A DNA stretch of 64,000 nt from an uncultured virus (IMG/VR IMGVR_UViG_3300009008_000030) (lineage: Duplodnaviria; Heunggongvirae; Uroviricota; Caudoviricetes), in IMG/VR virus record IMGVR_UViG_3300009008_000030. One strand, written 5' to 3'. This document shows, piece by piece, positions 722-55,838 of this stretch. Below the pieces are notes generated by a model. The model saw only the letters and a list, made by a program, of their open reading frames with translations, had not been told where the DNA came from and ran no database searches. The position numbers were made by a program, and so were the translations under genes. Each line of letters begins with the position of its first letter. The stretch's first letter is position 1.

Positions 722-725
722 TGAG

Positions 726-2336: not shown

Positions 2337-2665
2337 TCATAAGCTGCACTCTCAAAATCAGGCCAGGGTACTTCCTTGAAGTAGTCGCTGACAAACTTCT
2401 GGTAGTCACTCAGGCCCTTCATTCGCTTCGTGCGTGAGAAGGTGACTGTCTTTTGTCGGGGGGTACCTTTGTGGAAGGTGACACTACGGGGCTTGGGGAG
2501 CAACTGAGCTTGTTGTTCGCGCACCCATTTCGCCCCTTCGCTCTCGCCCGTAAAGGGGAGGTAGGGCTGCTGTGCGGCAGATCCACGTCCCTCCGCACCC
2601 TGCTGAGCCGCAACATAGCCCACCCCGGCTCCCACCAATCCCCATGCCATGTAGTTCTGAGCCAC
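2288..2665 (-). CDS. Small protein with hydrophobic Gly/Ala-rich N-terminal leader
   Basis: Starts MAQNYMAWGLVGAGVGYVAA; AGGAG RBS upstream. Confidence 0.7.
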   Translation of the reverse strand: MAQNYMAWGLVGAGVGYVAAQQGAEGRGSAAQQPYLPFTGESEGAKWVREQQAQLLPKPRSVTFHKGTPRQKTVTFSRTKRMKGLSDYQKFVSDYFKEVPWPDFESAAYEWQLYKDGDVPWPGKR

Positions 2666-2673
2666 GATCTCTC

Positions 2674-4029
2674 CTAGTCGCAGACGCAGTTGCGACGGCC
2701 TCGGGCGGCCTGTCCGGTGGTTGCATCAATGTACTTTTGCAGGCCGCCTTGAAAGGCGTAGCGGAAGTCGCTCCAGAACTCCTTGGCTACCGCGTTGGGA
2801 ACAGGACCGTTCTTGAAATACCGCTTCTTGAACTGCGCGAAGGTGTACCGCTTGGAGTAGGGGTTGACCTCTCTCCCTGCACGGCGACCGCTAGCTCGCC
2901 TGCCTCGGGCACCAGCAGGGGGTAGCGCATACCTCAATATTTCCTCTACGCGGTAAAAGGCTGCACTTTGCGTATGAGAAGTTCCATACGCAATCCTCTT
3001 GCCATGCAAGATTACCCCCCAACTCCATCCCAGCTTCCCAAACTTCTTTACAACCGCCCGCACCATGAACTTGCCGTAGGGGGCCTCCAGAACGTAGTGA
3101 CCGGGCTTGATCTCCGTGTACGCCTCACCCAACGCCTGAGACACCGGAGGGTAGGCGGCTCGCCTGCCTCGGGCGGCCTTCTTACGCCCCAGCCCGTAGT
3201 GTCCTGCCTTGGTCATGCGGTTGAGGTATGGCCCCTTGTGAAAGGACATGCGAGGGTGGCGCTTCTTCCAGAGGGCTTCGATGTGGTCCTGCGCTGCGTG
3301 GTATCGCCGCAGGTAGGAACGAAGATCCTCCTTCACCTTGCGGGGGAAGTGGTCGCGCACGACGCCTGAGATTGCAGAACCGTGAGATCCATGCTCCTTG
3401 AGAGCAGCAGCAACAGCGCGATTATACTTGCCCGCCCAGGTGTTTGCCTTACGGATCGCGCTGTCAAACTCTTTCTCAGACACATGCTGGCTTCGGACGT
3501 TACGCCTGCCTCGGGCGCTGTGGCCCGTCTTAGTGAGGCCCCTCAACTCAGCCTGAGCATCTTTTTTGAGGGTGTGCCACTCTCCCACATAGTCGTTGTT
3601 TACCCCTGTAACTCGGTACAAAGGGCGGCCCTTGTAGTGGTCATAGCCCTCAAAGATCTTGTACTTGAAAGAAGCGCGTCGTCTTGCGTCTGCGAGCGCA
3701 CCTCGTTCCTCGTCCTTGTCAGGATCATATCGAGCGCGACGGCCTCGGGCGCGGTGGCCTTCTTCCTGGGCCATGACCTTGGCGGTATTGTAGGCGTCCT
3801 CTCGGTCGTCGGTGTGATACCACTCCTCGATCTCGCGGCTACCCTGCGGCTTGACGATGTATTCTTCCCACTCTCGGTCAAAATAGACCTTCATCGGCCC
3901 GATGGTTTTCTTGAGTACCAGGGTGCCCCGGCGACCTTTGCCGCCGTGTAGAACATGCTCCACCGCTGCCTTTCCGGCTCCTGCGCCGAACGAGCTAATC
4001 GCTGCCTGTCCTAGTGACTTCCAGATCAT
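2674..4029 (-). CDS. RGRRA-linker polyprotein with about 5 modules
   Basis: Leader MIWKSLGQAAISSFGAGAG, then KGRRG, ARGRRA, ARGRRN, ARGRRA, ARGRRASGRRA and ARGRRN. Confidence 0.85.
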   Translation of the reverse strand: MIWKSLGQAAISSFGAGAGKAAVEHVLHGGKGRRGTLVLKKTIGPMKVYFDREWEEYIVKPQGSREIEEWYHTDDREDAYNTAKVMAQEEGHRARGRRARYDPDKDEERGALADARRRASFKYKIFEGYDHYKGRPLYRVTGVNNDYVGEWHTLKKDAQAELRGLTKTGHSARGRRNVRSQHVSEKEFDSAIRKANTWAGKYNRAVAAALKEHGSHGSAISGVVRDHFPRKVKEDLRSYLRRYHAAQDHIEALWKKRHPRMSFHKGPYLNRMTKAGHYGLGRKKAARGRRAAYPPVSQALGEAYTEIKPGHYVLEAPYGKFMVRAVVKKFGKLGWSWGVILHGKRIAYGTSHTQSAAFYRVEEILRYALPPAGARGRRASGRRAGREVNPYSKRYTFAQFKKRYFKNGPVPNAVAKEFWSDFRYAFQGGLQKYIDATTGQAARGRRNCVCD

Positions 4030-6582: not shown

Positions 6583-6816
6583 CTAGCGGCGGCTGCGGCT
6601 GCGGCGGCCTCGATTGGAATGGCCTGCCATTGAGGTGCCGGGAGGACCACCCGCCTGTTCCCAGGCCATAGCTTCGTAGACGCCACCCAGGTGACGGCGG
6701 GCGCGAGAGCCCATGTGCTGCTTGCCATAACGCACCTTGAGACCCGACTTCTCGTAACCGTAGAAGGCGAGAGCGCCTAGACCCATGAAGGCGATGTTGT
6801 TAAGCCACTTTCCCAT
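6583..6816 (-). CDS. Small membrane-anchored protein ending in NRGRRSRSRR
   Basis: N-terminal hydrophobic segment IAFMGLGALAFYG; RBS upstream. Confidence 0.7.
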   Translation of the reverse strand: MGKWLNNIAFMGLGALAFYGYEKSGLKVRYGKQHMGSRARRHLGGVYEAMAWEQAGGPPGTSMAGHSNRGRRSRSRR

Positions 6817-7201: not shown

Positions 7202-7398
7202 TTCCTTTCTGGACAGGTCGAGGCTTTCATTCTGGTCTTGACCTTCATAAAGCAGCCACAGTGCGTACAGCGCCAGTCACGGGTCATTTGGGGGCACCGC
7301 TGGCAGATAGCTAGGCGCTGCCTCGGCGTGGCCTTGACGGCCCGCTGAGGTCGCTGCTGCTGTTGTCTAGCGGGCTTCCACTTCCGCATCAGGTCCAC
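7195..7398 (-). CDS. Small Cys-rich zinc-binding phage protein (DUF6171-like)
   Basis: RLAICxxC...CxxCGCF..K.....CP..KW pattern. Confidence 0.7.
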   Translation of the reverse strand: MDLMRKWKPARQQQQRPQRAVKATPRQRLAICQRCPQMTRDWRCTHCGCFMKVKTRMKASTCPERKW

Positions 7399-7736
7399 CC
7401 CTCGGCCTGGGCGACCGGAGCCGCGTCGAGGACAGGGGGCGGGTCATGGAGGATGCGCTCAAATACCGTTCGACGCCTCGACGCCACACCTCGGCCCGTA
7501 TCGGTCAACTGGTAGGTACGCATCCGGTGTCGGCCATGTCGCAGGGACCAGCCTGTGCAGGTGATGAGAGCTTTCTCCTGCATGGAGCGGAGTTCACGAT
7601 TGACGTTGAAGGTAGGAACGTCGATCCCTACCTCAGCCAAGGCATCCCCTACTTCCCCTGCACCCACGGGTCGCGGCTCCCCTTCCAAGAGAAAGAGAAT
7701 CACGCTGTCGAGACGTAGGAGATCGCTAGAGAACAC
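7389..7736 (-). CDS. Winged-helix DNA-binding protein (PadR-like)
   Basis: VNRELRSMQEKALI...RTYQLTDTGR matches a wHTH wing signature. Confidence 0.65.
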   Translation of the reverse strand: MFSSDLLRLDSVILFLLEGEPRPVGAGEVGDALAEVGIDVPTFNVNRELRSMQEKALITCTGWSLRHGRHRMRTYQLTDTGRGVASRRRTVFERILHDPPPVLDAAPVAQAEGWT

Positions 7737-7749
7737 TGCTCTCTATCTC

Positions 7750-8733
7750 CTAGTAGCTGTAGGCGAAGTTGGCTGCACCCCCGCGACCGCGCATAGCGAG
7801 AAACGCGATCAGGCCGACGACGGCCACGCCGCCTAGACCGATTCCGACCCACGCTCCGGCTCCGAGACCGCCCGAACCGCTGCCCTGCTCGTCGTTGACG
7901 GTGTTGGCCGCGTTGGCGATGGATTGGTTCATTCGATCTTGAGCCATTTGCTCAGCCAGCCTGTTGTTGTTGAGAATGGCATCGGCAAGGTCAGACTTTG
8001 ACTGAGCTAGCTCGTTGGCGCTCGTTTGCAGTTTGGCGTTGGCCTCGGCGCTGAGTGCGCTGGAGTCACCTCCAGAGGCATTGACGGCTGCGTGAAGCTG
8101 ACCGATGCCCCCAAACAAAGCCCCCGCTCCTGCCAAGGCCGTTCCTAAAATGTTGGCGAAGGCGTTGGGGTCGAAGCTCTGCTTGTTGCCAGAGCCAGCA
8201 CCGCCCCCTTCTGTGTCGCTCGCCCCGCCGGAACTGGTGTCTCCGCTGGAACCGCCGTTGCTGAAATCGAAGCCTGTCCCGGTCCATGTAAAGCCGTACC
8301 GATCTCCAGAGAATCGAGCCCTTCGCGTTTGCGTAGCTCGGACAAGACACCCTCCTTTACGGAGACCTCGGAGAGAGGCTCTGAGAAAGGCATTACGCTT
8401 AGCTGGAGGAATCTCGTGGCGCAAGATGCCCCAACGCATCTGAAACTGAATGATGGAGCGAGCGCGGCGGCGTGTGCGCCCTGTGCCCCACTGAACGACC
8501 GCTCTAGCCAGTTCAGGGTTGTCGGGGTGGTTCCTCATCCCCGGCGTTGCATTGAGCGAGCGGGTGACCGCCTGGACGCAGGGAGAGAGGGGCTGGCGTA
8601 GCTGCCCTGCCTGGAGGCCAGCGGCTTGTCCGTAGGCTTTTCCGGCGGGGTGCGCGTTGGCCCATAGGGCATCTCGATAGTGTGGCTGCATGTTATTGCT
8701 CCGAGGCGTCAAGTAAAAGGGTCTCGGCCCCAC
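7750..8733 (-). CDS. Putative virion membrane protein (Gly/Ser linker, coiled coil, C-terminal TM)
   Basis: Ends GAWVGIGLGGVAVVGLIAFLAMRGRG; internal hydrophobic helix; YG motifs. Confidence 0.65.
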   Translation of the reverse strand: MGPRPFYLTPRSNNMQPHYRDALWANAHPAGKAYGQAAGLQAGQLRQPLSPCVQAVTRSLNATPGMRNHPDNPELARAVVQWGTGRTRRRARSIIQFQMRWGILRHEIPPAKRNAFLRASLRGLRKGGCLVRATQTRRARFSGDRYGFTWTGTGFDFSNGGSSGDTSSGGASDTEGGGAGSGNKQSFDPNAFANILGTALAGAGALFGGIGQLHAAVNASGGDSSALSAEANAKLQTSANELAQSKSDLADAILNNNRLAEQMAQDRMNQSIANAANTVNDEQGSGSGGLGAGAWVGIGLGGVAVVGLIAFLAMRGRGGAANFAYSY

Positions 8734-12730: not shown

Positions 12731-13486
12731 TTGACAAAGAAAGCAAACTCTGATCTCGCCATCGCCTACATTCGGGTCTCGACCGACGACCAACACCTGG
12801 GACCGGAGGCCCAGCGCCAGGACTGCGAAAAGTGGTGTATACGCCACGAGGTCAAGCTCCACTCTGTTTTTACGGACCAGGGCGTGTCTGGTGGAAAGGG
12901 TCTCGACTCCAGCGGGACCGCTCTCGACCTCACCAAGCGCCCTGCGCTGATGGAGGCGATCTCACAGATGCGGGAAGTGGGTGCTGGGATCTTACTGGTG
13001 GCCAAGCGGGACCGACTCGCCAGGGACGCGATGTTGGCCGCCATGCTTGAGCGGCTCTTGGCCAAGACCGGAGCGGTGGTGCGCTCGGCAGACGGCGTAG
13101 CTGGAGGCGACACCCCGGCAGATCGCTTCCAAGCTCAGATTCTCGATGCCGCCAGCGAGTACGAGCGGGCGCTCATCCGTGCCAGGACCGCCGCTGCGCT
13201 GGCCGTCAAGCGCCGCCGGGGGGAAAAGACAGGGGGAGACACACCCTTTGGCTTCCGCGCCGTTCCTGATGCCTCTGGTACGCTCCTGCTGGTCGAGGAC
13301 GCAGGGGAGCAGTGGGTCATGGCCTACATCGAGACTGCACGGCGGGCTGGCCTGTCCTACGCTAAGATCGCCAAGAGGCTCAACGCAGAAGGGATCTCAT
13401 GTCGCGGAAGCCGCTGGCATACGACGACGGTGGTTCGCCTGTACAAGCGGCAGGTGGCTAAGCGCCTAGCGCCCGCTCTCATCTGA
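12731..13486 (+). CDS. Serine recombinase (resolvase catalytic domain plus short recombinase domain)
   Basis: YIRVSTDDQ with catalytic Ser, DQGVSG, RPAL, KRDRLARD, SEYERALIRART, and C-terminal LSYAKIAKRLNAEG...RWHTTTV. Confidence 0.93.
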   Translation: MTKKANSDLAIAYIRVSTDDQHLGPEAQRQDCEKWCIRHEVKLHSVFTDQGVSGGKGLDSSGTALDLTKRPALMEAISQMREVGAGILLVAKRDRLARDAMLAAMLERLLAKTGAVVRSADGVAGGDTPADRFQAQILDAASEYERALIRARTAAALAVKRRRGEKTGGDTPFGFRAVPDASGTLLLVEDAGEQWVMAYIETARRAGLSYAKIAKRLNAEGISCRGSRWHTTTVVRLYKRQVAKRLAPALI

Positions 13487-41141: not shown

Positions 41142-41150
41142 GGCGCTCTC

Positions 41151-41675
41151 CTACCATTCCATCCCTGCCTGCCAAGCAGGTAGCGAAGGGTACAGCCCTC
41201 TGTACTCAAGTTCTTCCACGATCTTAAAAAACAAAAACGACCCCGGCTTACTACCTGACTCGGTAGCGATCACCTCCCAGAGCTTTCGCTTCTTGGCAGC
41301 GGTGTAAGGGGGAGAGACAGGCACATCACCGTCGCTCTCAAGGGAATCTACAAAGTCCTCGATCCATTCATCATCTTCCGCAGAACGGCGGCCTCGGGCA
41401 GAGCTTCCTGCCTTGCGGGCCATCTCGCGGGCCAGTGTACGCGCCCTTCGCTTGGTGGTAGCGAAGTCCCACGTCGTATTGTCACTTGGGTCAACCGCTA
41501 TGATGTACTGATCGAACTCCCAATCGAGATAGATGGGAATCCCCTTGACGGTCTCGACGTAATCTCGGCCTTCCTTCAACAACCACCTATCCACAGCCCG
41601 GCGGCCTCGACCACGCGCAGCCCCGCCGACCCGGCATCGGGTGAACTGTCCTCGGCGGTTGCGGCAGCTACTCAT
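41151..41675 (-). CDS. RGRRA-linker modular protein with Cys-basic leader
   Basis: MSSCRNRRGQFTRCR...ARGRGRRA...GSSARGRRS. Confidence 0.8.
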   Translation of the reverse strand: MSSCRNRRGQFTRCRVGGAARGRGRRAVDRWLLKEGRDYVETVKGIPIYLDWEFDQYIIAVDPSDNTTWDFATTKRRARTLAREMARKAGSSARGRRSAEDDEWIEDFVDSLESDGDVPVSPPYTAAKKRKLWEVIATESGSKPGSFLFFKIVEELEYRGLYPSLPAWQAGMEW

Positions 41676-41856
41676 GTCGATCTCCTACTTTCTTGCGATT
41701 GGGGGTCAAGGCCCAGGTGACGGCGGCACGGAGACCCTCAGCGAGCGCAGCCCCAGCAAGGCCCGTTACCTCGGGGCGAACGCGCTCAAAGGCCGCAGAT
41801 GCAGCCTCCTTGGCCTTTTGGCCTTTTTCGTCCACCGAAATATCCTCGTCAGTCAT
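41668..41856 (-). CDS. Small hypothetical protein
   Basis: 62-aa ORF overlapping the next start. Confidence 0.5.
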   Translation of the reverse strand: MTDEDISVDEKGQKAKEAASAAFERVRPEVTGLAGAALAEGLRAAVTWALTPNRKKVGDRHE

Positions 41857-41906
41857 ACCCTATCCCTCGCGTCGTCTGTGCCCTGTGCGAAGCCTCTAGC
41901 GGCGTC

Positions 41907-42761
41907 TCAGAAGCCTCCGCGCTTATACCACTGAGCGGCGTTTTTTCGGTTCATCAGAGACCACAGAACCCCTCGCTCTGCTGCATTAGGCTTAGTGCGG
42001 CGAATACTCACATACTTCATATCGCTACGGTTGCGAGCGTTCTGGGCCACAACCTCAGCCTCACGCAGACTTTTTACCGGGAGAATGACCTTGTTCTTCT
42101 TGCCCCTTGCTTTGCCCCATCCCGACATGAAGGAATCGGTAGCTGTGACGTAGCCCCATGCAGACGGGATCTCCTCGGCGCTGGTGACGATGGCGGCGCG
42201 GCGGCCTCGGGCTGCACTACCCCTCTCACCCTTCTCTACGAGCTTGATCAGCTTTCGATGGTCAGTCCATGCTCTGCGAAGCTCAGGGGTATCCTTGAGT
42301 CTCCCTGCGTCAAGCAGTTGCTTGGCATAGACTCTGGTTCGGAGAATGGTGGTTCGCCAATCTCCGTCCCATTCCCACTTAACGGTAGGGGCTCGCCTCC
42401 CTTGCATGGCGCGGCGGCCTCGACCACGGCTCAGGCTTTGGAAATACTTACGGTGTTTGATCGCTCGACCTTTGGCCTGCGCCCGCGTCTTGAAGCCGCT
42501 GCCTCTCTTGACCACCTTCGATATTACATAGCGACCGTCAGGTTGCGGCTCACTGGTAGAGATGTTCTCAGTGATGACGAACCCAAAGGTTCCAGTCGGT
42601 TCCTTCTTTGTGCGCCAGCTATATAGCGGCACATCGTGGTAAAGCCGAGGGGTCAAGGGGTTGAGGGGAGGTGCGCCGTCAGCGCGGCGGCCTCGACCAC
42701 GGCTCAGGCCATAGGCGGCTGCGGCTCCGACTGCGGCCATTCCTAGCTTGGCGTAGCTCAT
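41907..42761 (-). CDS. Leader-bearing RGRRA polyprotein, 3 modules
   Basis: MSYAKLGMAAVGAAAAYGLSRGRGRRA; ATGA overlap with the upstream gene. Confidence 0.88.
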   Translation of the reverse strand: MSYAKLGMAAVGAAAAYGLSRGRGRRADGAPPLNPLTPRLYHDVPLYSWRTKKEPTGTFGFVITENISTSEPQPDGRYVISKVVKRGSGFKTRAQAKGRAIKHRKYFQSLSRGRGRRAMQGRRAPTVKWEWDGDWRTTILRTRVYAKQLLDAGRLKDTPELRRAWTDHRKLIKLVEKGERGSAARGRRAAIVTSAEEIPSAWGYVTATDSFMSGWGKARGKKNKVILPVKSLREAEVVAQNARNRSDMKYVSIRRTKPNAAERGVLWSLMNRKNAAQWYKRGGF

Positions 42762-43354
42762 AGTAGATCCCACCCCTCTTGTATCTTGTTCAGTGCAGCC
42801 AAGACGTTCTCAGGAGACCCCTTTAGGCGCTTACTCTCCTTGATCCAAACGATAACTGCGGGGTCGTTGGTTGAGTCAGAAAAGTTGATAGCCAGAGAAC
42901 CAATCCACGCAGATCCAGTCCTGCTCTTTTTGTCGAACCTGAGCCTGATGCCTCTGGCGCTGTATTTTTTCCTAAGTAGGGCAGCGAACTGCTCTGCTTC
43001 CCCGACATACCCATTAGCGCGGCGGCCTCGGGCTGTACTACCTCCCGCATCTTCCCAATCATGGTACTCCTGCAAGGAGATAGAGGGTTTGCCCCCAGCA
43101 GCCGCGAGAATCCTCTTGGCTTCGTGCTTGTAGCCTTCCGCTAGAGAGGGATCGAAAGACATCCCTCCGCTCTCTATGTCTTTCAACATGCGGTGAAGCT
43201 CTCTAATCCCTGGCGCACCCCCTCCGAAAGCGTCTGAGTAAGCCTGAGATCTCCCAAGCTCAAAGTTACTCTCGTCGCGGCGGCCTCGACCACGGCTCAT
43301 GCCATAGGCTGCTGCGGCTCCAAAAGCGGCCATTCCTAGCTTGGCGTAACTCAT
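42758..43354 (-). CDS. Leader-bearing RGRRA polyprotein, 2 modules
   Basis: MSYAKLGMAAFGAAAAYGMSRGRGRRD...STARGRRA; AGGAG RBS. Confidence 0.88.
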   Translation of the reverse strand: MSYAKLGMAAFGAAAAYGMSRGRGRRDESNFELGRSQAYSDAFGGGAPGIRELHRMLKDIESGGMSFDPSLAEGYKHEAKRILAAAGGKPSISLQEYHDWEDAGGSTARGRRANGYVGEAEQFAALLRKKYSARGIRLRFDKKSRTGSAWIGSLAINFSDSTNDPAVIVWIKESKRLKGSPENVLAALNKIQEGWDLL

Positions 43355-43374
43355 CTCGTTCTCCTACCCTTCCA

Positions 43375-44517
43375 TCAGTCCCAGGATATGCCAGCAGCTT
43401 TCATGTCCCGCTTGAAACCCGCCCGTAGCTTCGGCAATCGCAGCTTGAGCCACCGATCAAGAGCCGCAGGGTCTTTAGACATGATTTTTCCAACATCAGC
43501 ACTCTTGTCGCTGGGAAGCGCCCCCCACACCACCGTGGACTTGAAGTGCGCCTTGTGGCCTTCCCTAGCCCAATACTTCGCGTTAGGTCGATAGTGCATA
43601 GGCCCCGACGAAGGGCTGAACAGGTGCCACTTGATGAGCGGGCGCAGCTTCGGGAAGTAGCGCCTCACCATGCCGTGGAGTTGGCCCCCCGACACTTCTC
43701 GACCGTTGGGGGCGTATCCGGTTCCCGTAATAGAAAAGTAGGGTTCCCGGTTCCCCCTAAGAAAGTTCATTCCATACTCAGCTTGGAACTTGCCTTTTCT
43801 GGAGTACCCGGTGTCTGCGGGCACCTTCTCGGTTTTCTTCCTTCGGCTGGACCCGGCGGCCATGACCCGGCGGCCTCGGGCAGAGCTTCCTTTTGGCTTC
43901 ACCATGTAGGAGTGGAGTTTTCTTAGGTCAGAGTCGGAGAGGGAGTCGAGGTATACGACCGCCGTGGAACCTTCCCAGCCCATGTGGTCATGGGCGGCGG
44001 GGCCGATCATAATGCCGATTCGCCCCCATCCCTTGTCACTTCTGTAGTCAGGGTGCTTGCTCGACCAAAGCTCCTTCATCAGCTTGGTACGCGAAGATGT
44101 CGCAGCGCGGCGGCCTCGGGCGCGGCGACCTCGGTCCCTCACTAGATCATTGGGATAGCCGCCCCACCAGTCGATAATCCCTCTGAGCGACCCTGGAGTG
44201 ATTCGTCCCAGGAAGTCGTCCGGTTGGTCGGTGATAGCCAATACTGAGCCTATCGAGGTGAACACCTCGTCGTCGGGATAGGGATGGACGAAACTCAACC
44301 GCTTGTACACCATAGCGCCTCCCCCATCCTCTGGATTGGGAATGAAGTAGTCCTGCCCGATGGTTACGGAGGCGTTGTCGATGAACTCCCCTTCGGGGGT
44401 GTCGATGCTGTGAGGGCCTGATCCAAGACGGATTCCAGCGCGGCGGCCTCGACCACGGCTTAGGCCGTAGGCGGCTGCGGCTCCAAAAGCGGCCATTCCT
44501 AGCTTGGCGTAACTCAT
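43375..44517 (-). CDS. Leader-bearing RGRRA polyprotein, 3 modules
   Basis: Same leader, then RGRRARGRRA and GSSARGRRV. Confidence 0.88.
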   Translation of the reverse strand: MSYAKLGMAAFGAAAAYGLSRGRGRRAGIRLGSGPHSIDTPEGEFIDNASVTIGQDYFIPNPEDGGGAMVYKRLSFVHPYPDDEVFTSIGSVLAITDQPDDFLGRITPGSLRGIIDWWGGYPNDLVRDRGRRARGRRAATSSRTKLMKELWSSKHPDYRSDKGWGRIGIMIGPAAHDHMGWEGSTAVVYLDSLSDSDLRKLHSYMVKPKGSSARGRRVMAAGSSRRKKTEKVPADTGYSRKGKFQAEYGMNFLRGNREPYFSITGTGYAPNGREVSGGQLHGMVRRYFPKLRPLIKWHLFSPSSGPMHYRPNAKYWAREGHKAHFKSTVVWGALPSDKSADVGKIMSKDPAALDRWLKLRLPKLRAGFKRDMKAAGISWD

Positions 44518-44657
44518 GTGAGAGGCTTCGGGCGACCGCGAACGAGGGTGACGAGGCCGCTAATGGCCCCACTGGCCAGGAAGAAGGTCATCCAGGGGTG
44601 TTCGTAGATCCAACCCTCGTGACACACAGGGCCTTCGGCGCGTTGTCCATATCTCAT
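44514..44657 (-). CDS. 47-aa membrane peptide (below the ORF-track cutoff)
   Basis: AGGAG RBS; MRYGQ...PWMTFFLASGAISGLVTLVRGRPKPLT; ATGA overlap. Confidence 0.65.
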   Translation of the reverse strand: MRYGQRAEGPVCHEGWIYEHPWMTFFLASGAISGLVTLVRGRPKPLT

Positions 44658-44666
44658 GTCGATCTC

Positions 44667-45008
44667 CTAGTAGGCGAGCAGCCGTGCCTTCTTGGCACTA
44701 CGGTACTCTCCAGGCGTGGCAGCAATAGTCATACTGGCTTCTTGAGCATTGGGAAAGACGGACAGGAGTGCGCTACGCCCACCGTACCCCTCGTCAACAA
44801 AGCCCAGGAACTTGCCGCTGCGGTCATGGACGTACCAGCCTCGACGGGGGTTTCCGTTTGTATCGTGGCCTGCGTTGATCTTCTGCGCCCATACCTTGTT
44901 GCGCGAGATAACGGGGATGCCTTTGTACCGCCTACGCTCAGCAGGACCGCGAGCCGCACGGCCCCGGCACTTCGTAAACTTCCCTGCTTTCGTTCTGCAA
45001 CTGTCCAT
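44667..45008 (-). CDS. Single-module protein with Cys-basic leader
   Basis: MDSCRTKAGKFTKCRGRAARG resembles the leader of 41151..41675. Confidence 0.75.
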   Translation of the reverse strand: MDSCRTKAGKFTKCRGRAARGPAERRRYKGIPVISRNKVWAQKINAGHDTNGNPRRGWYVHDRSGKFLGFVDEGYGGRSALLSVFPNAQEASMTIAATPGEYRSAKKARLLAY

Positions 45009-45018
45009 CTTGATCTCC

Positions 45019-45453
45019 CTATCTAAGCTCTTGCGGAATGTACCAGGGTTGAGGCTGGTGGAACACCGCCGACTCTACCCGCAAGCGAGATTGCTCCTGG
45101 GCCTCGGCCCTGGCCTTGGCCACGGCCTTGACCTCACTATCCCTTGCAGCAAACGCCAACTTGATTTTCTGCACCGCTGCGCTGGGGTCTTTCGACCTAC
45201 GCCAACTGCGGGTGCCCGATGAGAAATGCGACTTGAACCGCTGCGCTCCCAGCTTATCCACCCACGGCTTCGGCACTCCCACCCACACCACATGCCCCGC
45301 CGGGATATTCCCCACAGCGGCCACAGACGGCCCTCTGAGGGCCTTGAGCGAGCCCTCCCTGGTCAGGGTGTACACGAGCGCGTCTGTGGCCTCTACGGCG
45401 CGCAGAAAGGCCCGGTCATGGGCTGAGAACACAATGGCAGCGACAGGGGTCAT
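45019..45453 (-). CDS. Hypothetical protein
   Basis: ORF inside the array, without leader or linker. Confidence 0.6.
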   Translation of the reverse strand: MTPVAAIVFSAHDRAFLRAVEATDALVYTLTREGSLKALRGPSVAAVGNIPAGHVVWVGVPKPWVDKLGAQRFKSHFSSGTRSWRRSKDPSAAVQKIKLAFAARDSEVKAVAKARAEAQEQSRLRVESAVFHQPQPWYIPQELR

Positions 45454-45459
45454 AGGGCC

Positions 45460-45798
45460 TCAGTAGATGTACTGCGCCATTCGGCGCACCATGTTGTGTT
45501 CTGCTAGGTCTAGGCCGCGAGGCCCCAGGATTTCTTCGATCTCCCAATCATTCTGTAGAAACTTGTCTCCTACGGCTTCTCCCTCGGGATCGAAGATCTC
45601 CAGGCCCACATACCCCATCCTCAGATTGGTAATCAAGACGTAGAGGTAGCCGTCGTCTCCCTTGAATACGTCGATGCCGTCGTTGGTCCCTGCGCCTATG
45701 GGGAGGGCATGACCATTTACCAAGACCTTGGTGGACGGCCCGTAGTGCCCTGGTTGCCAATACTGTTCCTTGCGGAAGTCGATGGAGCGAAGTTTCAT
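45460..45798 (-). CDS. Hypothetical protein
   Basis: GGAGG RBS and ATGA overlap; no leader or linker. Confidence 0.7.
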   Translation of the reverse strand: MKLRSIDFRKEQYWQPGHYGPSTKVLVNGHALPIGAGTNDGIDVFKGDDGYLYVLITNLRMGYVGLEIFDPEGEAVGDKFLQNDWEIEEILGPRGLDLAEHNMVRRMAQYIY

Positions 45799-46616
45799 CG
45801 CCGCCTCCTAGCCCGTCGCCCACTCATGGCGAACTCCACGTCCTCGACTGAGACATACATATCGCTGCCTCGGTCATAGTGTCGGCCCTTTCGGGGGTCA
45901 TAGTACAAGATCTTGCCACTTCGGTAGCGGAACGGCCCCTCCATGCCAGGGATGGGCGGCGGCAAGTCCTCGGCGGGCCTAGACACCACACCTTGCTTCT
46001 CCCATGCCTGCGCCACCAAAGCTCGCTTCTCGGCCTTCGACATAGCGCGGCGGCCACGACCAAACTCCCATCCAGAATAGCCTCCAAACTCGCTAAACTC
46101 CTCAAAGCGGGCGATAGCTCGATCTAAGGCCGCTCTTGCCTTGGGGGTGTTGGGTCGCAGTCCTTTGTGGCTTCGATAGAAATTGGTGAATCGGCTCTCT
46201 ACTCGGTATTGCTTGTCCTTCTTGTCAAAGACCACCATCACCTTGCCCCACGGCTCAAAGTGGCTAGATCTCAAGATCTCCACATCTCCCGCAGCGCGGC
46301 GGCCTCGGTCAGAAAAATCCCACCCGTATTTCTCGCGCACTTGCCCGATAAGAAGGTACGGGGGAGTACGCATATCAGCTTCGATTGCATCAGCGACAGC
46401 ACGAGCTTCTTTTGCAGTACGATAGCGGGGAGGGGTAACGTCAAAGGTTCCGGTGGTCCGTTCCTCAACCGTCACATAATAACGACCTTCTTTGCTACGG
46501 GCCAACGACACCACGGGATAGATACCAGGGCCTCGGGCACGACGGCCTTGACCACGGCTCAGTCCGTAGGCTGCTGCGGCTCCGATTGCGGCCATTCCTA
46601 GCTTGGCGTAGCTCAT
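45795..46616 (-). CDS. Leader-bearing RGRRA polyprotein, 3 modules
   Basis: MSYAKLGMAAIGAAAAYGLSRGQGRRA, then DRGRRA and GRGRRA. Confidence 0.88.
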   Translation of the reverse strand: MSYAKLGMAAIGAAAAYGLSRGQGRRARGPGIYPVVSLARSKEGRYYVTVEERTTGTFDVTPPRYRTAKEARAVADAIEADMRTPPYLLIGQVREKYGWDFSDRGRRAAGDVEILRSSHFEPWGKVMVVFDKKDKQYRVESRFTNFYRSHKGLRPNTPKARAALDRAIARFEEFSEFGGYSGWEFGRGRRAMSKAEKRALVAQAWEKQGVVSRPAEDLPPPIPGMEGPFRYRSGKILYYDPRKGRHYDRGSDMYVSVEDVEFAMSGRRARRRR

Positions 46617-47473
46617 CTCGGCACCCTGCCGTCCACAAGAGGAACGAGACGATAGCCCGTATACCTTTTCGCCTCAGCCAGAGTGCGGAAGTGTGGCCCC
46701 TTGCGGCTCCAACCCCAAGACCGACTCTGGAACAGGTAGGAGTTATGATAGACCGCCCAGCGCGTGGCCTCCCGGCCCTTCGACCAGACTCGCTCCTTCT
46801 TGATCAAGACGGAGCCGCCGTCTGAGGGAGTTCTCGACCACAGGTAGCTACCGTCTCCCTGACGCTTGAAGTCGGGCTTGTGGGCTGCGCGGCGGCCTCG
46901 GGCAGAGTGTCCCGCCTTGCGGGTAACGTGCAGCACCCACATTCCCTTGCCTTCGTAGTAGGCTTCTACCTGGGTGACTCCAGGGATACTCAGGCCAACC
47001 TGTTTAGCCAGGGGAGCGAGTCGGTCCTTCTGCGCTTCATATTCGTAGTCGTCCAAACCGTCGATGTTGGGACCGTGCAATTCGTACTTATTGGGGCCTG
47101 CTGGCTCCAAGCTATCGAAGGCGTCCATATTTCTACGACCTCGGCGGGTGGCGTGGTGTGCCTGATATGCCTCAAGGTGGTGAAGCGCCTCGGCTAGTTG
47201 GTGGCGAAAGTCTCTGCCTATCTCAACGGTCGCGGCTGCGGCTCGCTCGGCCTCGTGGTCGTAGTTCGTGTGCGTCGGGTCGGCCTCGGGGAGCCACATC
47301 GCATCGATGGTGGCTTGCGCCCCGGCGATCTCGCAGTCGAGGCGGGAGATCGCGTCTCGGAGGGACTGTGGCGAAGAGTGGTCAATCTGGCTGGCGCGGC
47401 GGCCTTGACCACGGCTCAGTCCGTAGGCTGCTGCGGCTCCGATTGCGGCCATTCCTAGCTTGGCGTAGCTCAT
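46613..47473 (-). CDS. Leader-bearing RGRRA polyprotein, 3 modules
   Basis: Same leader (TGATG overlap), then RRGRRN and HSARGRRA. Confidence 0.88.
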   Translation of the reverse strand: MSYAKLGMAAIGAAAAYGLSRGQGRRASQIDHSSPQSLRDAISRLDCEIAGAQATIDAMWLPEADPTHTNYDHEAERAAAATVEIGRDFRHQLAEALHHLEAYQAHHATRRGRRNMDAFDSLEPAGPNKYELHGPNIDGLDDYEYEAQKDRLAPLAKQVGLSIPGVTQVEAYYEGKGMWVLHVTRKAGHSARGRRAAHKPDFKRQGDGSYLWSRTPSDGGSVLIKKERVWSKGREATRWAVYHNSYLFQSRSWGWSRKGPHFRTLAEAKRYTGYRLVPLVDGRVPR

Positions 47474-48993
47474 CAAAGGTACCTCTGCACGATGGGCCAC
47501 AGAGCGTCTTTATGCTCCGATAGGTCAGCGAGCGTCATGCTAGGTGCGTCAGGGAGCGCCTGAGCCAACTCCTCGACCAGCTTCCTGGCTGCTGGCTTTC
47601 CCCGGACGGTACCGAGGGCAATCCCGCTCGGCAAGTGCGTCACCGACCAGTAAAGGCGACCACTTTTCCACATGCCAAAGCCAGAGTCTCCGTAGATTTC
47701 CCCGTCCTTGTCGAGCCTTTCCCCCTGCGGGCTTGTGAGCGAGAGGGTGCCGGGTCGCCACGCAGACCTGCTTGCGCTTTTCTTGCGCGGCGTGACCACG
47801 GCAGAGCGGCGCAGGGTCAACCAGCCACGCTTGTACCCTACGGTCAAGGGGAGGTCATGGAGATAGGGATCTACCGCTCTCAACGACCGCTTGCTCTTGA
47901 GATTCCGCAAGATGGTGCCTGCGGCGGCCTCGGCCTGGGATTTTGTCAGAGCGTCGGTCCAGACGAACCAGCCCTGCCCCCGCCACAACAAGATGCGTCC
48001 GTCCTTCGCCTTCTTGGCCCCGGCTGGCTTGAGCAGGAGAGAAGCAGAGAGGTGTTCCTCCAGCCCACTGTACTCACGGCCTGCCCCCATCGCGGACTGG
48101 TGAGCATCGTAGTCGCGTCCCTTGTAGGGTTCGTGATGCTCCTGCCGCCGACCGATAGCGCGGCGGCTTTTGGCAGATCGATAGGTTCCATCAGAGCGCA
48201 GACGCTCTTCTCGATCCATGTTCAAACAAGCAGCCACAGCCCGACGCTCATCCCAACCCTCGCCACGCACCTTGCCGGAAATGCACTTGCTTACACGCTT
48301 GTTGTGCTTGCGGCCTCGGGCACTCCGGCCCTTCTTGAGCAAACCCAGCGCCTCGGCGCGGCGTACCGTCTTGGTTGCGTAGGCCCCACGCTTTACCCCG
48401 GTCGCTGCGTCATACCCGGCCTTCCACTCAATGCCGTGACGTTGGCTGATCTTACCCCGCCTGTACGCAGTCGAGGCCGCGACGATCTTCTTTGCCTTCT
48501 TCCCTGCCGCAAACCCAGCGCGAAAGTCGTCGTCCCATGCAGCTTTCCACTGTATGGGCGAACCGAAATCATCGACTTCGTATCCGGCAGGTCCAGCACG
48601 GCGGCCTCGGGCCTCGTGCCCTCCCAGCCGTGCCCAAGGGTCTCTGTGGTAGCTCCTCGGTGGTGCGTGGTGAAAGGTTACCTCCTTCCTGGCCGTGTCA
48701 AAGACCTCGACGGTGCGCGTGTCGTCCTCTGCGATCACCTCGTCGGCCAAGTCCCACGCAGCTTGCTGATCATCGGTACGCAGGATCACCTCGGGACCGC
48801 TGTAGTCAAGTCCGTAGCGTTGCTGATCGCCCATCACCGACATGCGAACGTGATAACGCGAGGGGCTGATCTTCTTGCGGCCCCTGTTCTGGCCCCAGCC
48901 CTGGCGCATCTTTTCTTCGGACCTCGCCGCCCAGGCTATGAGCCCGACTCCGGCGAGAGGCGCGATCCAACGTCCTGCGCTCATCACGACCAC
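47473..48993 (-). CDS. RGRR-linker polyprotein with variant hydrophobic leader
   Basis: MSAGRWIAPLAGVGLIAWAA, then NRGRKK, EARGRRA and SARGRK. Confidence 0.85.
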   Translation of the reverse strand: MVVMSAGRWIAPLAGVGLIAWAARSEEKMRQGWGQNRGRKKISPSRYHVRMSVMGDQQRYGLDYSGPEVILRTDDQQAAWDLADEVIAEDDTRTVEVFDTARKEVTFHHAPPRSYHRDPWARLGGHEARGRRAGPAGYEVDDFGSPIQWKAAWDDDFRAGFAAGKKAKKIVAASTAYRRGKISQRHGIEWKAGYDAATGVKRGAYATKTVRRAEALGLLKKGRSARGRKHNKRVSKCISGKVRGEGWDERRAVAACLNMDREERLRSDGTYRSAKSRRAIGRRQEHHEPYKGRDYDAHQSAMGAGREYSGLEEHLSASLLLKPAGAKKAKDGRILLWRGQGWFVWTDALTKSQAEAAAGTILRNLKSKRSLRAVDPYLHDLPLTVGYKRGWLTLRRSAVVTPRKKSASRSAWRPGTLSLTSPQGERLDKDGEIYGDSGFGMWKSGRLYWSVTHLPSGIALGTVRGKPAARKLVEELAQALPDAPSMTLADLSEHKDALWPIVQRYL

Positions 48994-50417
48994 CAGATGT
49001 TTCCACCTTCGCCTTGCGAGAGGTCTTTAATGGCCTCGACCCACTCATCGTAGGTCTTGACCGAAGGGGAGAGAGCATAGACGCTGCTGCTGTACCAAAA
49101 GTCGGTCTCACCAAAAGGCTGGGGATGGCCCTCAACTGCGTCTACATAGCGGTGCCAGCCGCCATAGTAGGCGGGCATTTCTGACATCCTTGTAACCACG
49201 ATCTCATAGCCATAGCCGTTCTTGAGCAGCCACTTGTTGAGTTGCTTCCACGTTCTCGGGGCCTTACCCCCGTCAGCATGACGGGCGCGGCGACCTCGGA
49301 ACTTCTCTTTCTGGCGGTACTTGGCCTGGGCTTTGGGATCGAGCAGTTCTTGCAGGGTGGTTTCGCCTCGGGTGACGGGGCTTGCTTCCCACCCGATCTC
49401 GCGCTTCGGAGACCCTTTGCGGCGACCTCGGGCAGAGCGGCCTTTGGGAGCCTCAATCACGATGGACAAAAGCTGGTCTGGGGTGCCCTTCATGGCATCT
49501 ACCCAATGTCCAGGCTCTCCCTTCTTGAAGGTGCCCGCAGGCACCCACGCTTCGGTCAGCAACCACGCGATCTCATCCTTGTCGAGATTCCACTGGTGAT
49601 CCCATATCCTGGGAGAAACTCGATAGAGAGTTCCCCGGTTATGCGAAAGACCAAAGGTCGCGGGAAAGCGGTTTATAGCTGCTTGGATCGCCTTGTCTCG
49701 GGCCTTGCTCTCTCGGCCCAAGCGGGAGTCAGAATAACTCGTGTCTCGTCGTCTTGGCCTTGACCCAGGTAGGGATACTCTCTTGGCGGCGGGCTTCTTA
49801 GCAGGACGACGGGCACGGCGGCCTCGGGCAGAGCTTCCCTTCTTCGCGCTGCGGCTATAGACCTCTTTCATCCCCCCACCCGGCAAGACACGCTCAACTG
49901 TGCCTCGCTCGGCGTCTCCGGTGCGGATAGAGTGATCGACCGACTCCACAGCATTGATGTTGCCCTCGCGCCCATACTCGCTCCAGCGGGTAGGGGAGAT
50001 CCCCTTTCCGTAGTGCAAGGTCACGATGTAGCGGTCCTGATGCTTAGCTCGGCGGCCTCGGGCAGAGTGGCCCCAGCCGGGTGTGGTCGCATAGTAGTGC
50101 TTGCGAGCCGCATCTACAGCGGCCTTGAGGGTCTTGAAGCGCCTCTTGAATGTTGTGGACTCCCACCCATCGTCGCCACGGAAGGTCACCCTCACCGCCC
50201 ACTTTCCTTGGGAGGAATCAACTCCGTAGGAAGGGCCTTCTGCGGAGTCCCAACGATACTTAGATTCGCCTTGCCGAGTCTGCCGACGCCAGTGCTTGGC
50301 ATCGGGCATCGGATCTCGCCTGCCTCGGGCAGATTGGCCTTGACCCTCGCTCAGGGCATAAGCGACGAAAGCCAAACCTCCTAGCGCCAAAACAGGCTTA
50401 ATGTCTCCAGCGGCCAT
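48984..50417 (-). CDS. RGRRA-linker polyprotein with variant hydrophobic leader, about 5 modules
   Basis: VLALGGLAFVAYALSEGQGQSARGRRD plus four more linkers. Confidence 0.85.
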   Translation of the reverse strand: MAAGDIKPVLALGGLAFVAYALSEGQGQSARGRRDPMPDAKHWRRQTRQGESKYRWDSAEGPSYGVDSSQGKWAVRVTFRGDDGWESTTFKRRFKTLKAAVDAARKHYYATTPGWGHSARGRRAKHQDRYIVTLHYGKGISPTRWSEYGREGNINAVESVDHSIRTGDAERGTVERVLPGGGMKEVYSRSAKKGSSARGRRARRPAKKPAAKRVSLPGSRPRRRDTSYSDSRLGRESKARDKAIQAAINRFPATFGLSHNRGTLYRVSPRIWDHQWNLDKDEIAWLLTEAWVPAGTFKKGEPGHWVDAMKGTPDQLLSIVIEAPKGRSARGRRKGSPKREIGWEASPVTRGETTLQELLDPKAQAKYRQKEKFRGRRARHADGGKAPRTWKQLNKWLLKNGYGYEIVVTRMSEMPAYYGGWHRYVDAVEGHPQPFGETDFWYSSSVYALSPSVKTYDEWVEAIKDLSQGEGGNIWWS

Positions 50418-50419
50418 GA

Positions 50420-52233: not shown

Positions 52234-52239
52234 CCTGCA

Positions 52240-53295: not shown

Positions 53296-53346
53296 GAGGG
53301 GCTCCGGTGCAAGTGAGGAACAAAGCTCGATCTAGCGAAGGCCCGA

Positions 53347-53381
53347 TGCCCTTGCTCCCCGTCAGGAGGGAGCGAGGGGCA
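53347..53381 (-). terminator. Stem-loop downstream of the basic protein gene
   Basis: tgcccttgctccc...gggagcgaggggca. Confidence 0.4.
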
Positions 53382-53399
53382 CCGGACCATCAAGATCAA

Positions 53400-53840
53400 C
53401 TAGAAGCGCCTCGACCGCTTGCTGCCCTTACGGCAACCACCGGACTTGAGCTTGTCTGTCCACCGACCCGTCTTCTTGCTCACGCACACGAAACCGGAAC
53501 CTGCGCGGCGACCTCGGTTGGCAGCAGCCCTTTTCTTAGCCTTCCCACGGCAGTACGGCTTCACCGTGTAGGTGATCGACTTGGGCGTCTTGAGCAACTT
53601 CCCGGTTCTCTTGCTCTTGACCTTGATCTTCTTACCCTTGACCGTGTAGCCGCTGATCTTGACGGTATAGGGGCTGGAACAGCCACCCCTCTTACCCCGC
53701 TTAGCGGCGTAGCCACGCTTGCGGCCTGTGGCGGCGTCCTTGTTGCGGCGAGATCGGTTGCTGTCTTGCGGGCAGCGACCACTCTTGAGAGGCGACTTCT
53801 TGAGTCCGGTCTTGGTGTAGCAGAGCTTCCGGCTGGCCAT
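53400..53840 (-). CDS. Extremely basic Lys/Arg/Cys protein, candidate DNA-condensing core protein
   Basis: Almost no acidic residues; contains NRGRRAG; AGGAG RBS. Confidence 0.65.
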   Translation of the reverse strand: MASRKLCYTKTGLKKSPLKSGRCPQDSNRSRRNKDAATGRKRGYAAKRGKRGGCSSPYTVKISGYTVKGKKIKVKSKRTGKLLKTPKSITYTVKPYCRGKAKKRAAANRGRRAGSGFVCVSKKTGRWTDKLKSGGCRKGSKRSRRF

Positions 53841-54721: not shown

Positions 54722-55426
54722 TTAGAGACCTGCCAGGAAGAACACTACGTTGACCCCGATGTTGGAGGACACGGTGCCTGCGAGGGTACGAAGGGGCTGA
54801 CCTGCCACGGCGTTGACCACGAAGGTGGTAAAGGCCACACCGCCGCTCACGTTGTCAAAGGAGGTGAAGGTCAAGACACAGTTGGCCTCACAGACCATCT
54901 GCGCGGCCCCGTCAGGAACGGGAGTATTGGCCGCAGCCACCAGGGCGGTGATGGGCGAGCGCAGCAAGCCAGCGTCGGGCTGGGCGGGGAGTGCATCGAC
55001 CCACTGAATCCGCAGCGGGAAGTTCATGTCCGTACCGATGACGGTGGACTTGCTCTCCTGCACGATCTTAGCGTTCTGATACTGGCCCAAGGCCAAGGTC
55101 ACAGGAGTTCCCGGTCCTGCTACACAACGCCGGAACGCTGCACCGCCGTTGGAGTCACCGACTGTGATGTTGAGCACCGAAGATGTGGCCAAGGTTTGAT
55201 CTACGAAGCCACGAGGCTGGTCAATCACCGCACCGAGATAGGGACGGTTGGTGAATGGGTTGAGGGGCGGTGCGCCGTCGAAGAGCCGGTTGAGCGTCGG
55301 CGCGGCGATGGAGAGACCACGCGGGTACTGTGACCAGCGTACTCCGTCGATGGTGGGGTCGTTAGGTCCGAAGTGGCCTTTGTAGACCCGCTCTCCCGGT
55401 CGGTGGATAAATGGATCTTGGCTCAT
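54722..55426 (-). CDS. Beta-rich putative structural protein
   Basis: Start MSQDP by ATGA overlap; beta-strand-like patterning. Confidence 0.55.
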   Translation of the reverse strand: MSQDPFIHRPGERVYKGHFGPNDPTIDGVRWSQYPRGLSIAAPTLNRLFDGAPPLNPFTNRPYLGAVIDQPRGFVDQTLATSSVLNITVGDSNGGAAFRRCVAGPGTPVTLALGQYQNAKIVQESKSTVIGTDMNFPLRIQWVDALPAQPDAGLLRSPITALVAAANTPVPDGAAQMVCEANCVLTFTSFDNVSGGVAFTTFVVNAVAGQPLRTLAGTVSSNIGVNVVFFLAGL

Positions 55427-55812
55427 GCGATAGCTCCCATGCCGCCCTCGCGGGAGGGGTCGATGTATTCCACGCCAGGAACCCCCTCCACCTGCACGAC
55501 AACGTGCCACAGACCCGGCTGGGCCTGATAGGCCACAGGACGGGCTGGTATGCCCGCAGAGATAAGCTCACTGGCTACAGCGGTGGTCAAGTCCTCGCAA
55601 TCTCCGGTGCCCCTGGTCTTGACCTGTTCCCAGGTCAGCCATTCTTCATTGGGGTCGGCTTTGCGGTACTTGATGGTGCCGTCTTGCAGGCCCTTGAGGA
55701 CAGGGAGCTTCCCTACCTCTCCGGCGTCTGCAATCTGCATGAGATCACTCTGCACCAACCCGGCCAGTACCCCAGCCGCGTGTCGCGGGTCGAGGTCCAT
55801 GACAAGGCGCAT
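55423..55812 (-). CDS. Transglutaminase-like cysteine protease
   Basis: GDCEDL (Cys), GIPARPV, WHVVV (His) and YIDPS (Asp) form the triad. Confidence 0.82.
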   Translation of the reverse strand: MRLVMDLDPRHAAGVLAGLVQSDLMQIADAGEVGKLPVLKGLQDGTIKYRKADPNEEWLTWEQVKTRGTGDCEDLTTAVASELISAGIPARPVAYQAQPGLWHVVVQVEGVPGVEYIDPSREGGMGAIA

Positions 55813-55838
55813 CGCTGATCTCCCTAACGGTCACTCGC

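Follow-up and report, generated by a model that had tools for sequence, protein, structure and literature searches.

What a phage might gain from writing many small and mostly unrelated domains into single long genes, each domain separated from the next by one and the same short peptide, is the question raised by a block of genes at 41151-50417 on the minus strand of the 64,000-nucleotide (nt) stretch analysed here (IMG/VR record IMGVR_UViG_3300009008_000030, from an uncultured virus; the whole stretch is hereafter called the window). A reading made from the letters of the DNA (hereafter the sequence-only reading) had described at least eight co-oriented genes in this block as chains of two to five small domains, had counted about 25 copies of the linker by hand, and had noted that most of the genes begin with a Gly/Ala-rich leader ending in the same RGRR motif. 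These observations are borne out: the block, which we call array 2, comprises eight minus-strand genes with at least one internal linker, each encoding 2-5 modules of 44-277 residues (mostly about 65-130), and 26 linker or leader-end sites, namely 21 strict RGRR sites together with RGRK and QGRR variants; five genes share one leader and two have different ones. We propose that these genes encode leader-tagged cassette polyproteins, in which the joint would serve both as a recombination point and as an endoprotease site and the leader as a removable sorting tag, an explanation that we hold with slightly better than even confidence. Its components differ in strength. The polyprotein and cassette organization is well supported by sequence comparison, because the ends of homologues fall at linkers and the content and order of modules vary; cleavage at RGRR is likely; and a role of the modules as virion cargo is suggested by analogy.

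The joint, which lies in frame between modules, has the consensus G-x-[SR]-[AG]-R-G-R-R-A. The 21 RGRR sites of array 2 compare with a mean of 0.39 in residue shuffles of the same proteins (maximum 4 in 2000), and a second array, at 1-6816 on the minus strand (array 1), which the sequence-only reading did not include, contains 14 RGRR sites versus 0.22 expected. The other open reading frames (ORFs) of the window contain no RGRR site in 15,036 residues, and outside the arrays the relaxed motif is present in only two proteins, both of the adjacent late block. A logo built from 36 in-frame sites selected on RGRR, which is hence found in 36 of 36, shows G at position -4 (21 of 36), [SRHA] at -3, [RS] at -2, A or G at -1 (26 of 36) and A at +1 (27 of 36), with no conservation further downstream. 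Such one-sided conservation resembles that of the non-prime residues of a protease site.

At the DNA level, the joint corresponds to a near-identical tract of 19-30 nt, with 17 copies of a 19-nt tract. The 14-mer CGAGGCCGCCGCGC, with up to 2 mismatches, occurs in 32 copies, all on the minus strand, versus 2.0 expected, and 29 of the 30 copies in the arrays and the late block are in the reading frame of the gene. The exception, at 47919-47932 (minus strand) within a gene for a 506-residue chain, is out of frame and is read as QAEAAAG; a metagenomic contig (X7) diverges from the window at 47920, at this copy. The peptide RGRR is also retained under other codon sets (CGA GGC AGG CGA; CGT GGC CGT CGT), and GRSARGRRA is retained in relatives (P0010 and P0013) with modules that share no more than 38-39% identity with the window protein. 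Judged from these patterns, both a protein-level and a DNA-level constraint on the joint are present. Internal translation starts at the GAGG of the linker were rejected as a general rule, with only 4 ATG and 2 GTG codons following in 34 sites.

Five genes start with a near-identical 26-residue leader, MSYAKLGMAA[FIV]GAAAAYG[LM]SRG[RQ]GRR, that ends in the linker motif. The corresponding DNA is an 82-nt repeat in 5 copies with 85-100% identity, and the homology of leader DNA, including that of the leader in a contig from a relative, ends directly after the RGRR codons. The leaders of the genes at 47473..48993 and 48984..50417 are of a different, hydrophobic kind, and Gly/Ala-rich leaders similar to the common one occur in further genes. 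The sequence-only reading had the leader anchor the chains to a viral membrane or core. The hydrophobicity of the common leader is 0.86-1.06 (Kyte-Doolittle scale, 19-residue window) versus 1.45-2.38 for the C-terminal anchors of neighbouring proteins, and that of the two different leaders is 1.67 and 1.46, respectively; because the common leader is weakly hydrophobic, membrane anchoring is doubtful.

Multiple lines of evidence suggest that the modules are proteins in their own right. In an all-against-all BLASTP comparison of 44 modules, only 6 pairs reached an expectation value (E) of 0.01 or lower, 3 of them through linker-adjacent residues only, which confirms that the domains are mostly unrelated. 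No chain of either array contains a Pfam family, and four modules match small PHROG families of unknown function (profiles of 66-190 positions), each match lying inside one module. Thus phrog_13298 matches only the last module of 45795..46616, and phrog_5423 matches the last module of 41907..42773 (E 4.6e-23), a module that is found in 12 of 13 IMG/VR loci as a stand-alone short frame of 83-130 codons with no RGRR beside it. An exhaustive HMMER search with the 477-residue chain encoded at 48984..50417 recovered 20 proteins, of which 6 are chains of the same kind and 13 are stand-alone proteins of 68-120 residues that match module 2 only; many of these stand-alone homologues begin MDRYIV..., a start four residues past the linker of the window protein. 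Module 3 of the same chain is a separate gene without linkers in a relative (P0005, 138 residues, 78% identical). The expectation that the boundaries of homologues should coincide with linkers is therefore realized, single-module homologues being stand-alone phage proteins of 70-140 residues.

A structural model points in the same direction. In an AlphaFold2 model of the 477-residue chain, built with homologue sequences (modules without an alignment stayed unfolded), the leader forms a helix at residues 7-25, module 1 (35-115) a compact beta-plus-helix domain with a predicted local distance difference test score (pLDDT) of 81-94, and module 2 (125-195) a compact alpha/beta domain with pLDDT 91-96, and pLDDT falls below 50 at 24-31 and 116-124, which are the linker positions. 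Fold searches with this model gave leads only, all below Z 8: module 1 matched other chains at Z 6.9, and module 2, a 70-residue alpha/beta domain encoded at 49815-50048 (minus strand), matched the T4 antitoxin Dmd (5hy3_B; Z 6.6, root-mean-square deviation 2.5 over 57 residues), below the level of a shared fold. From the free-standing homologues and the model, it can be predicted that the modules fold independently as small accessory proteins.

The content and order of modules vary among relatives, as the sequence-only reading had anticipated, and this is seen both in homologous proteins (P0004, P0006, P0007, P0008, P0010, P0013, P0018 and P0045) and at the breakpoints of metagenomic contigs. 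One relative (P0004) combines the leader of the window and the last module of 42758..43354 with two other modules between them; in another (P0006), modules 2 and 1 of the 477-residue chain appear in inverted order, with an array-1 module after them; in two more (P0007 and P0008), other modules follow the same joints; and P0045 joins the array-2 leader to an array-1 module. At 78% identity, the same module is fused in the window and a separate gene in the relative (P0005). Contigs assembled from four metagenome runs (four studies) and aligned to 40000-52000 show that relatives share single modules with the window. Among the breakpoints listed in the array, which include joint ends and loose ends of contigs, 17 of 34 lie within 15 nt of a linker core, versus 11% expected (p 2.5e-8); for 5 more, a gene border is no more than 15 nt away, and the other 12 are found elsewhere. 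One contig piece (X6, 48310-48609) covers exactly one module between two linkers of the 506-residue gene; two contigs (X5 and X6) both leave the window at 43890/43891, at a linker, and each continues with a different sequence; and an X6 contig jumps from 41369 to 41597, with 17 nt in place of the intervening sequence, and so lacks module 1 of 41151..41675 without a shift of frame. The comparison with relatives demonstrates that modules are exchanged, deleted or added by recombination at the joint tract and at the 82-nt leader tract.

A scan of metagenomes recovered one 2.1-kb contig (L014), which is syntenic with 7389-9233 at 80-98% identity. Between its homologues of 7389..7736 and 7750..8733, it carries an extra gene (336-722, minus strand) for a 128-residue protein consisting of a leader plus one module; at this position the window has 13 nt only.

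Chains of this kind are not limited to the phage represented by the window. A search with the 536-residue chain of array 1 recovered 77 proteins, of which 75 (328-875 residues long) match module 5 only. These homologues sit in long polyproteins of other marine phage lineages, where the module is preceded by a different repeated short joint, of the type EEV[ED]LDE (ELDE-A), RL[GN]E-G or x-N-P. ELDE or DLDE occurs at least three times in 19 of the 77 proteins; P0102, P0060 and P0103 have 7 joints each, delimiting pieces of 53-227 residues, and the middle pieces differ among the three; the x-N-P joint is present in 11-14 copies in P0113 and P0114. Given that the same module is accompanied by different joints in other lineages, the type of joint follows the lineage instead of the module, which is what would be expected if it is read by a lineage-specific enzyme. 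The Glu-ending L-x-E joints fit the motif of T4-type head proteases, and one locus of the Glu-joint lineage contains genes for a UvsX-like protein, a DnaB-like helicase and a DNA primase, a set that we take to be typical of T4-type phages; no protease gene was found near this locus within the DNA stretch examined. Long ORFs split into pieces of 50-150 residues by EEV[ED]LDE or x-N-P joints were seen in P0053-P0103, P0096/P0097 and P0113-P0115, and at two loci (L016, 3700-6486, and L017, 5151-7496) the chain follows a gene for a 1037-residue cytidyltransferase fusion.

Array 1 resembles array 2 in its chains and encloses, as a separate ORF, a SNF2-family helicase. The chains are encoded at 1..4029 on the minus strand and have lengths of 240 (cut by the end of the window), 536 (5 RGRR sites), 125 and 451 residues (5 RGRR sites); two of these proteins stop 4-5 residues past a last linker. 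The helicase (4030..6573, minus strand) is identified by the Pfam domains SNF2-rel_dom (E 2.9e-25) and Helicase_C and by phrog_62, and has a 28-residue N-terminal extension ending WRGRRA. Next to it, 6583..6816 (minus strand) encodes a 77-residue leader-only ORF that ends GHSNRGRRSRSRR and shares the frame of the helicase, with one TAG codon lying between the two. The leader ORF, the helicase and the 451-residue chain occupy one common frame, with single TAG codons between them (the chance that two junctions are both in frame is 1 in 9), and the start codon of the helicase is GTG with a weak ribosome-binding site. Conceivably, read-through or re-initiation yields leader-helicase fusions.

With respect to the enzyme that might read the joint, the only protease-fold gene seen in the window as a processing candidate is a 129-residue transglutaminase-like ORF (papain-type fold) at 55423..55812 on the minus strand. 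By inspection, its Cys72, His103 and Asp118 sit in what we take to be the triad motifs of the transglutaminase family, and its neighbours in the ESM Atlas are small viral proteins, some with PF01841; a sequence search of the Protein Data Bank gave no match. The ORF lies hidden beneath a longer ORF on the opposite strand (55411..55818, plus strand) that a greedy ORF picker favoured. As the sequence-only reading had remarked, RGRR fits the proprotein-convertase consensus R-x-[KR]-R; no S8 (subtilisin-like) peptidase was found in the window by Pfam and NCBIfam.

Thus, we propose that many small, independently folding accessory proteins would be translated as chains with one conserved joint, the DNA of which would act as a crossover tract for the swapping of modules. 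The joint peptide would be recognized by an endoprotease that cuts after R-R, with Ala at P1', and releases the modules as free proteins, and the leader would be a removable sorting tag, directing the chain to where it is processed; by analogy, this would be the assembling virion. Several observations weigh against this proposal. The match of the candidate protease to PF01841 (Transglut_core) is right at the threshold (23.1 versus 23.0 bits, E 9.1e-5). Moreover, searches with Pfam, PHROGs and NCBIfam did not recognize any capsid, portal, terminase or known head protease in the 64-kb window, beyond which the genome extends, and the link to head maturation is therefore a pure analogy. The breakpoint statistics come from short assembled contigs, and three joints with only 24-30 nt on one side may be linker cross-matches. 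The codons of the joint are over-uniform, the first Arg being CGA in 30 of 34 sites versus a background of 15-19% and the Gly being GGC in 30 of 34 versus 37% elsewhere, with CGC in 24 of 34; part of the conservation of the peptide could therefore ride on copying at the DNA level. Furthermore, some relatives have degenerate joints (GRSAKGGRD, GHGGQRSRK and GHRAGQRAG), so that the dibasic pair is not strictly required.

If the chains were instead to remain uncut, they could be beads on a string, with Arg-Gly linkers and basic modules that bind nucleic acid, either condensing or coating the genome or binding RNA, and with a leader that serves oligomerization or membrane contact. Most modules are indeed basic (isoelectric point about 9.5-11), the arrays have Arg and Lys fractions of 0.096-0.110 and 0.066-0.075 versus 0.075 and 0.033 in the other ORFs, a very basic 146-residue ORF of the late block shares the motif, and the linkers, modelled with low confidence, are probably flexible. 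Nevertheless, several modules are acidic (isoelectric point 4.2-6.2). Modules of the chains also occur as small genes of their own, both in other phages and in the 78%-identical relative, so that linkage is not needed for function. Nor does the motif contain the Pro that characterizes the AT-hook core, R-G-R-P: the position after R-G-R-R is occupied by Ala in 27 of the 36 sites of the logo, and Pro does not rank among the six commonest residues listed there. A linker with only 4-5 residues behind it at the very C-terminus would be senseless as a tether, and the two proteins that end in a linker plus such a stub fit better with a site attached to each module. In addition, the same module family is accompanied by acidic joints (EEVELDE) in other lineages, and charge is therefore not the common denominator. 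We regard uncut chains as unlikely.

The peculiarities of the joint DNA invite the view that the joint acts primarily at the DNA level, as a short stretch of homology or a site of recombination at cassette borders, with the peptide as a by-product; promoter-stem-loop cassettes mark cassette boundaries in T4-type phages. The codon identity far beyond the need of the peptide, the 17 copies of the 19-nt tract and 5 of the 82-nt leader tract, the breakpoints at linkers and the out-of-frame copy, exactly at which a contig diverges, are all in line with this view, but it would not lead one to expect that 29 of 30 copies are in the frame of the gene, that alternative codon sets still give RGRR and that diverged relatives keep the peptide. 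Nor does it explain the lack of stop codons between the cassettes, which independent genes would need, or the shared N-terminal leader that ends in the same peptide. As the whole explanation it is decidedly improbable, and we prefer to regard it as a second role that the joint has, not as a competing account. Very improbable, in our estimate, is a role of the leader as a signal-anchor, by which the chains would be inserted into the membrane or exported late and trimmed by a dibasic-specific envelope protease of the host, without being virion cargo. In its favour are the position of the arrays just upstream of the lysis cassette, the fair hydrophobicity of the leaders of the genes at 47473..48993 and 48984..50417, the similarity of R-R|A to the preference of omptins, and the presence in many neighbouring proteins of a hydrophobic anchor with basic residues after it. 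However, the common leader is only weakly hydrophobic and has no positively charged region at its N-terminus; its basic cluster comes after the hydrophobic stretch, an arrangement that would keep the chain in the cytoplasm; and a SNF2 helicase with the same N-terminal motif would be an unlikely exported protein.

As for parallels with known systems, the core polyproteins pp220 and pp62 of African swine fever virus (ASFV) and furin-type precursors are examples of one precursor cut at a repeated short motif, of the form R-x-[KR]-R in the latter. The cassette polyproteins proposed here are like them in the repeated motif, but belong to a bacterial virus and consist of exchangeable accessory modules instead of fixed structural proteins; no Ulp1-like or subtilisin-like protease was found in the window. 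A second parallel comes from the internal proteins of T4, which share a capsid targeting sequence (PMC3012670), the protease gp21 removing the N-terminal propeptides (targeting sequences) from capsid proteins, Alt and the internal proteins (PMC5694885). As in IPI-III and Alt, unrelated small proteins encoded in a late region have a short common N-terminal leader that ends in a processing motif, here a putative one, and would make up a diverse, fast-evolving cargo set. In contrast to them, each ORF strings together many domains separated by copies of a motif that is basic (RGRR-A) instead of x-x-Glu, and the leader is a 26-residue Gly/Ala-rich helix; neither a gp21-type protease nor a T4-type head gene turned up in the window.

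In giant phages, A/S-x-E motifs that recur within head proteins are sites of cleavage (PMC5694885), and in the ejection or inner-body proteins of SPN3US and phiKZ a repeated short motif is cut by one phage protease and propeptides are targeting sequences (PMC5694885, PMC10052503, PMC7411985). In those phages, the additional sites fall within long propeptides, which are discarded, whereas each piece of the chains described here is a folded domain, by prediction, with free-standing homologues. The polyvalent proteins (Iyer et al., 2017; PMC5512222) are likewise mosaic and multi-domain; they are predicted to accompany the DNA and to be set free by proteolysis. The chains have 2-6 modules, with content that varies among relatives, compared with the 2-15 domains and mosaic variation that characterize polyvalent proteins, and the SNF2 helicase, a typical domain of polyvalent proteins, sits inside array 1. 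Polyvalent proteins, as portrayed there, have recognizable enzymatic domains and an embedded peptidase, unlike the modules of 65-130 residues with no Pfam family, no peptidase in the chain and a uniform joint; that paper makes no use of the word 'linker'. No description of free-standing modules chained by one repeated joint was found in open-access papers or bioRxiv, most subscription journals being outside this search.

If the joints are cut, one operon would give rise to some 40 free small proteins, the repertoire of which could be reshuffled by recombination at a 20-nt joint. This would be a compact way to carry and exchange accessory or counter-defence factors, and one that gene-by-gene annotation would miss. 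The occurrence of one module family with three joint types in different marine phage lineages suggests a general principle. We tentatively consider a still wider possibility, to which we assign a rather low probability, namely that of an undescribed cassette-polyprotein system in many lineages, in which the joint is the cut site of the protease of the lineage as well as the crossover. The window would then represent a distinct branch of this system, with a furin-like site, RGRR|A, a Gly/Ala-rich leader, SNF2 cargo, a non-canonical, possibly transglutaminase-like cysteine protease, and modules that accompany the genome on delivery as anti-defence or takeover factors. From a practical standpoint, joints could provide a rule by which hundreds of long, 'hypothetical' phage ORFs are divided, from their sequence, into functional units, and leader plus joint could serve as portable tags for loading foreign proteins.

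Array 2 consists of 11 tightly packed genes, separated by -10 to +20 nt except for two gaps of 149 and 231 nt; all are on the minus strand. The 477-residue polyprotein (48984..50417) has a hydrophobic leader ending SARGRR and then 5 modules, with the joints GHSARGRRA, GSSARGRRA, GRSARGRRK and KFRGRRA. It is followed by the 506-residue polyprotein (47473..48993), with a hydrophobic leader, the joints HEARGRRA and GRSARGRKH and a 277-residue C-terminal part, and by 46613..47500, with a leader (ATG at 47473) and 3 modules joined by ATRRGRRN and GHSARGRRA. The protein encoded at 45795..46616 has a leader and 3 modules of 81, 83 and 83 residues, and its C-terminus is RRARRRR. Three single-module genes without linker (45460..45798, 45019..45453 and 44667..45008, encoding 112, 144 and 113 residues) precede 43375..44517, which encodes a leader and 3 modules with the double joint RDRGRRARGRRA and GSSARGRRV. 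The remaining genes are 42758..43354 (leader and 2 modules of 86 residues each); 41907..42773 (leader, with ATG at 42761, and 3 modules), in which the DNA of the internal joint SLSRGRGRRAMQGRRA is the same as that of a leader end; and 41151..41675, for a 174-residue protein with a basic, Cys-pair-containing N-terminus ending RGRGRRA and then 2 modules.

The 113-residue protein (44667..45008) has a basic N-terminus with a Cys pair that resembles that of 41151..41675. A basic stretch of this kind recurs, N-terminally or internally, at 41151-41675, 44667-45008, 726-2336 and 53400-53840 (minus strand), for example as SCRNRRGQFTRCR and SCRTKAGKFTKCR, with similar Cys pairs in the 146-residue basic ORF and at the end of P0007; this recurrent element may be a small metal or disulfide knuckle. 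The 146-residue ORF itself (53400..53840, minus strand) is very basic (isoelectric point 11.4 in its first part) and contains one linker copy, ANRGRRAG, the DNA of which is 1 mismatch from the 14-mer CGAGGCCGCCGCGC.

The sequence-only reading had placed the array between virion-membrane genes and cell-wall enzymes. The cell-wall side of this statement holds, since an M15 peptidase, two GDSL/SGNH hydrolases and an endolysin-like protein, that is, cell-wall or lysis enzymes, are encoded downstream of array 2 (Pfam, PHROGs). On the upstream side, the genes encode C-terminal hydrophobic anchors (Kyte-Doolittle, 19-residue window), and their identity as virion-membrane genes finds no support. Elsewhere, the window encodes a family-A DNA polymerase, a D5-type primase-helicase, helicases, a PD-(D/E)XK nuclease, a serine recombinase and the lysis cassette (Pfam, PHROGs); with a guanine-plus-cytosine content of about 0.60, it is read, on its gene content, as belonging to an uncultured phage. 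The DNA of the window is present in marine and seawater metagenome runs, four of which (X1-X4) contain 87-99% of the array words; no near-identical DNA was found in the phage collection, and the DNA polymerase has only distant relatives there, with at most 30% identity. Scans of IMG/VR with the exact leader DNA, the SNF2 helicase, a conserved 518-residue late protein, P0010 and an alignment (A2) found no relative, and scans of GTDB genomes with P0006 and A2 found nothing except one isolated match of 26 residues (L015, tblastn). Scans of the window for promoters and terminators gave background level only, and a scan for tRNA genes found none. Recoding of stop codons was rejected, given that TAG ends 27 of 85 ORFs, like a normal stop. 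Integron- and shufflon-type cassette systems depend on a dedicated site-specific recombinase that recognizes structured repeats at the borders of cassettes. Far from array 2, the serine recombinase is encoded at 12731..13486 (plus strand; Resolvase domain, E 2.2e-29, Pfam, PHROGs), and because of its presence the element may integrate or invert DNA.

The conserved 518-residue late protein has 19 homologues. Its AlphaFold2 model consists of a helical bundle and two beta-sandwich domains, with very few helices in residues 147-485. A Foldseek search with this model gave a template-modelling (TM) score of about 0.1, and VIA-align gave Z 6-8 alike to single viral jelly rolls and to carbohydrate-binding modules (CBM) or discoidin domains; no HK97-type capsid protein is among the fold matches of the model, and an ESM Atlas search with the protein gave nothing usable. 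An identity as a double jelly-roll capsid protein is not shown by these matches. Three small, paralog-like, beta-rich late proteins (124, 127 and 133 residues) precede the 518-residue protein. At least six late proteins, encoded on the minus strand at 50420-59103 and 7750-8733, end in a hydrophobic segment followed by basic residues, with C-termini such as ...VAIFRR, ...YKLSGR, ...WKLIGR and ...SMRGPRY.

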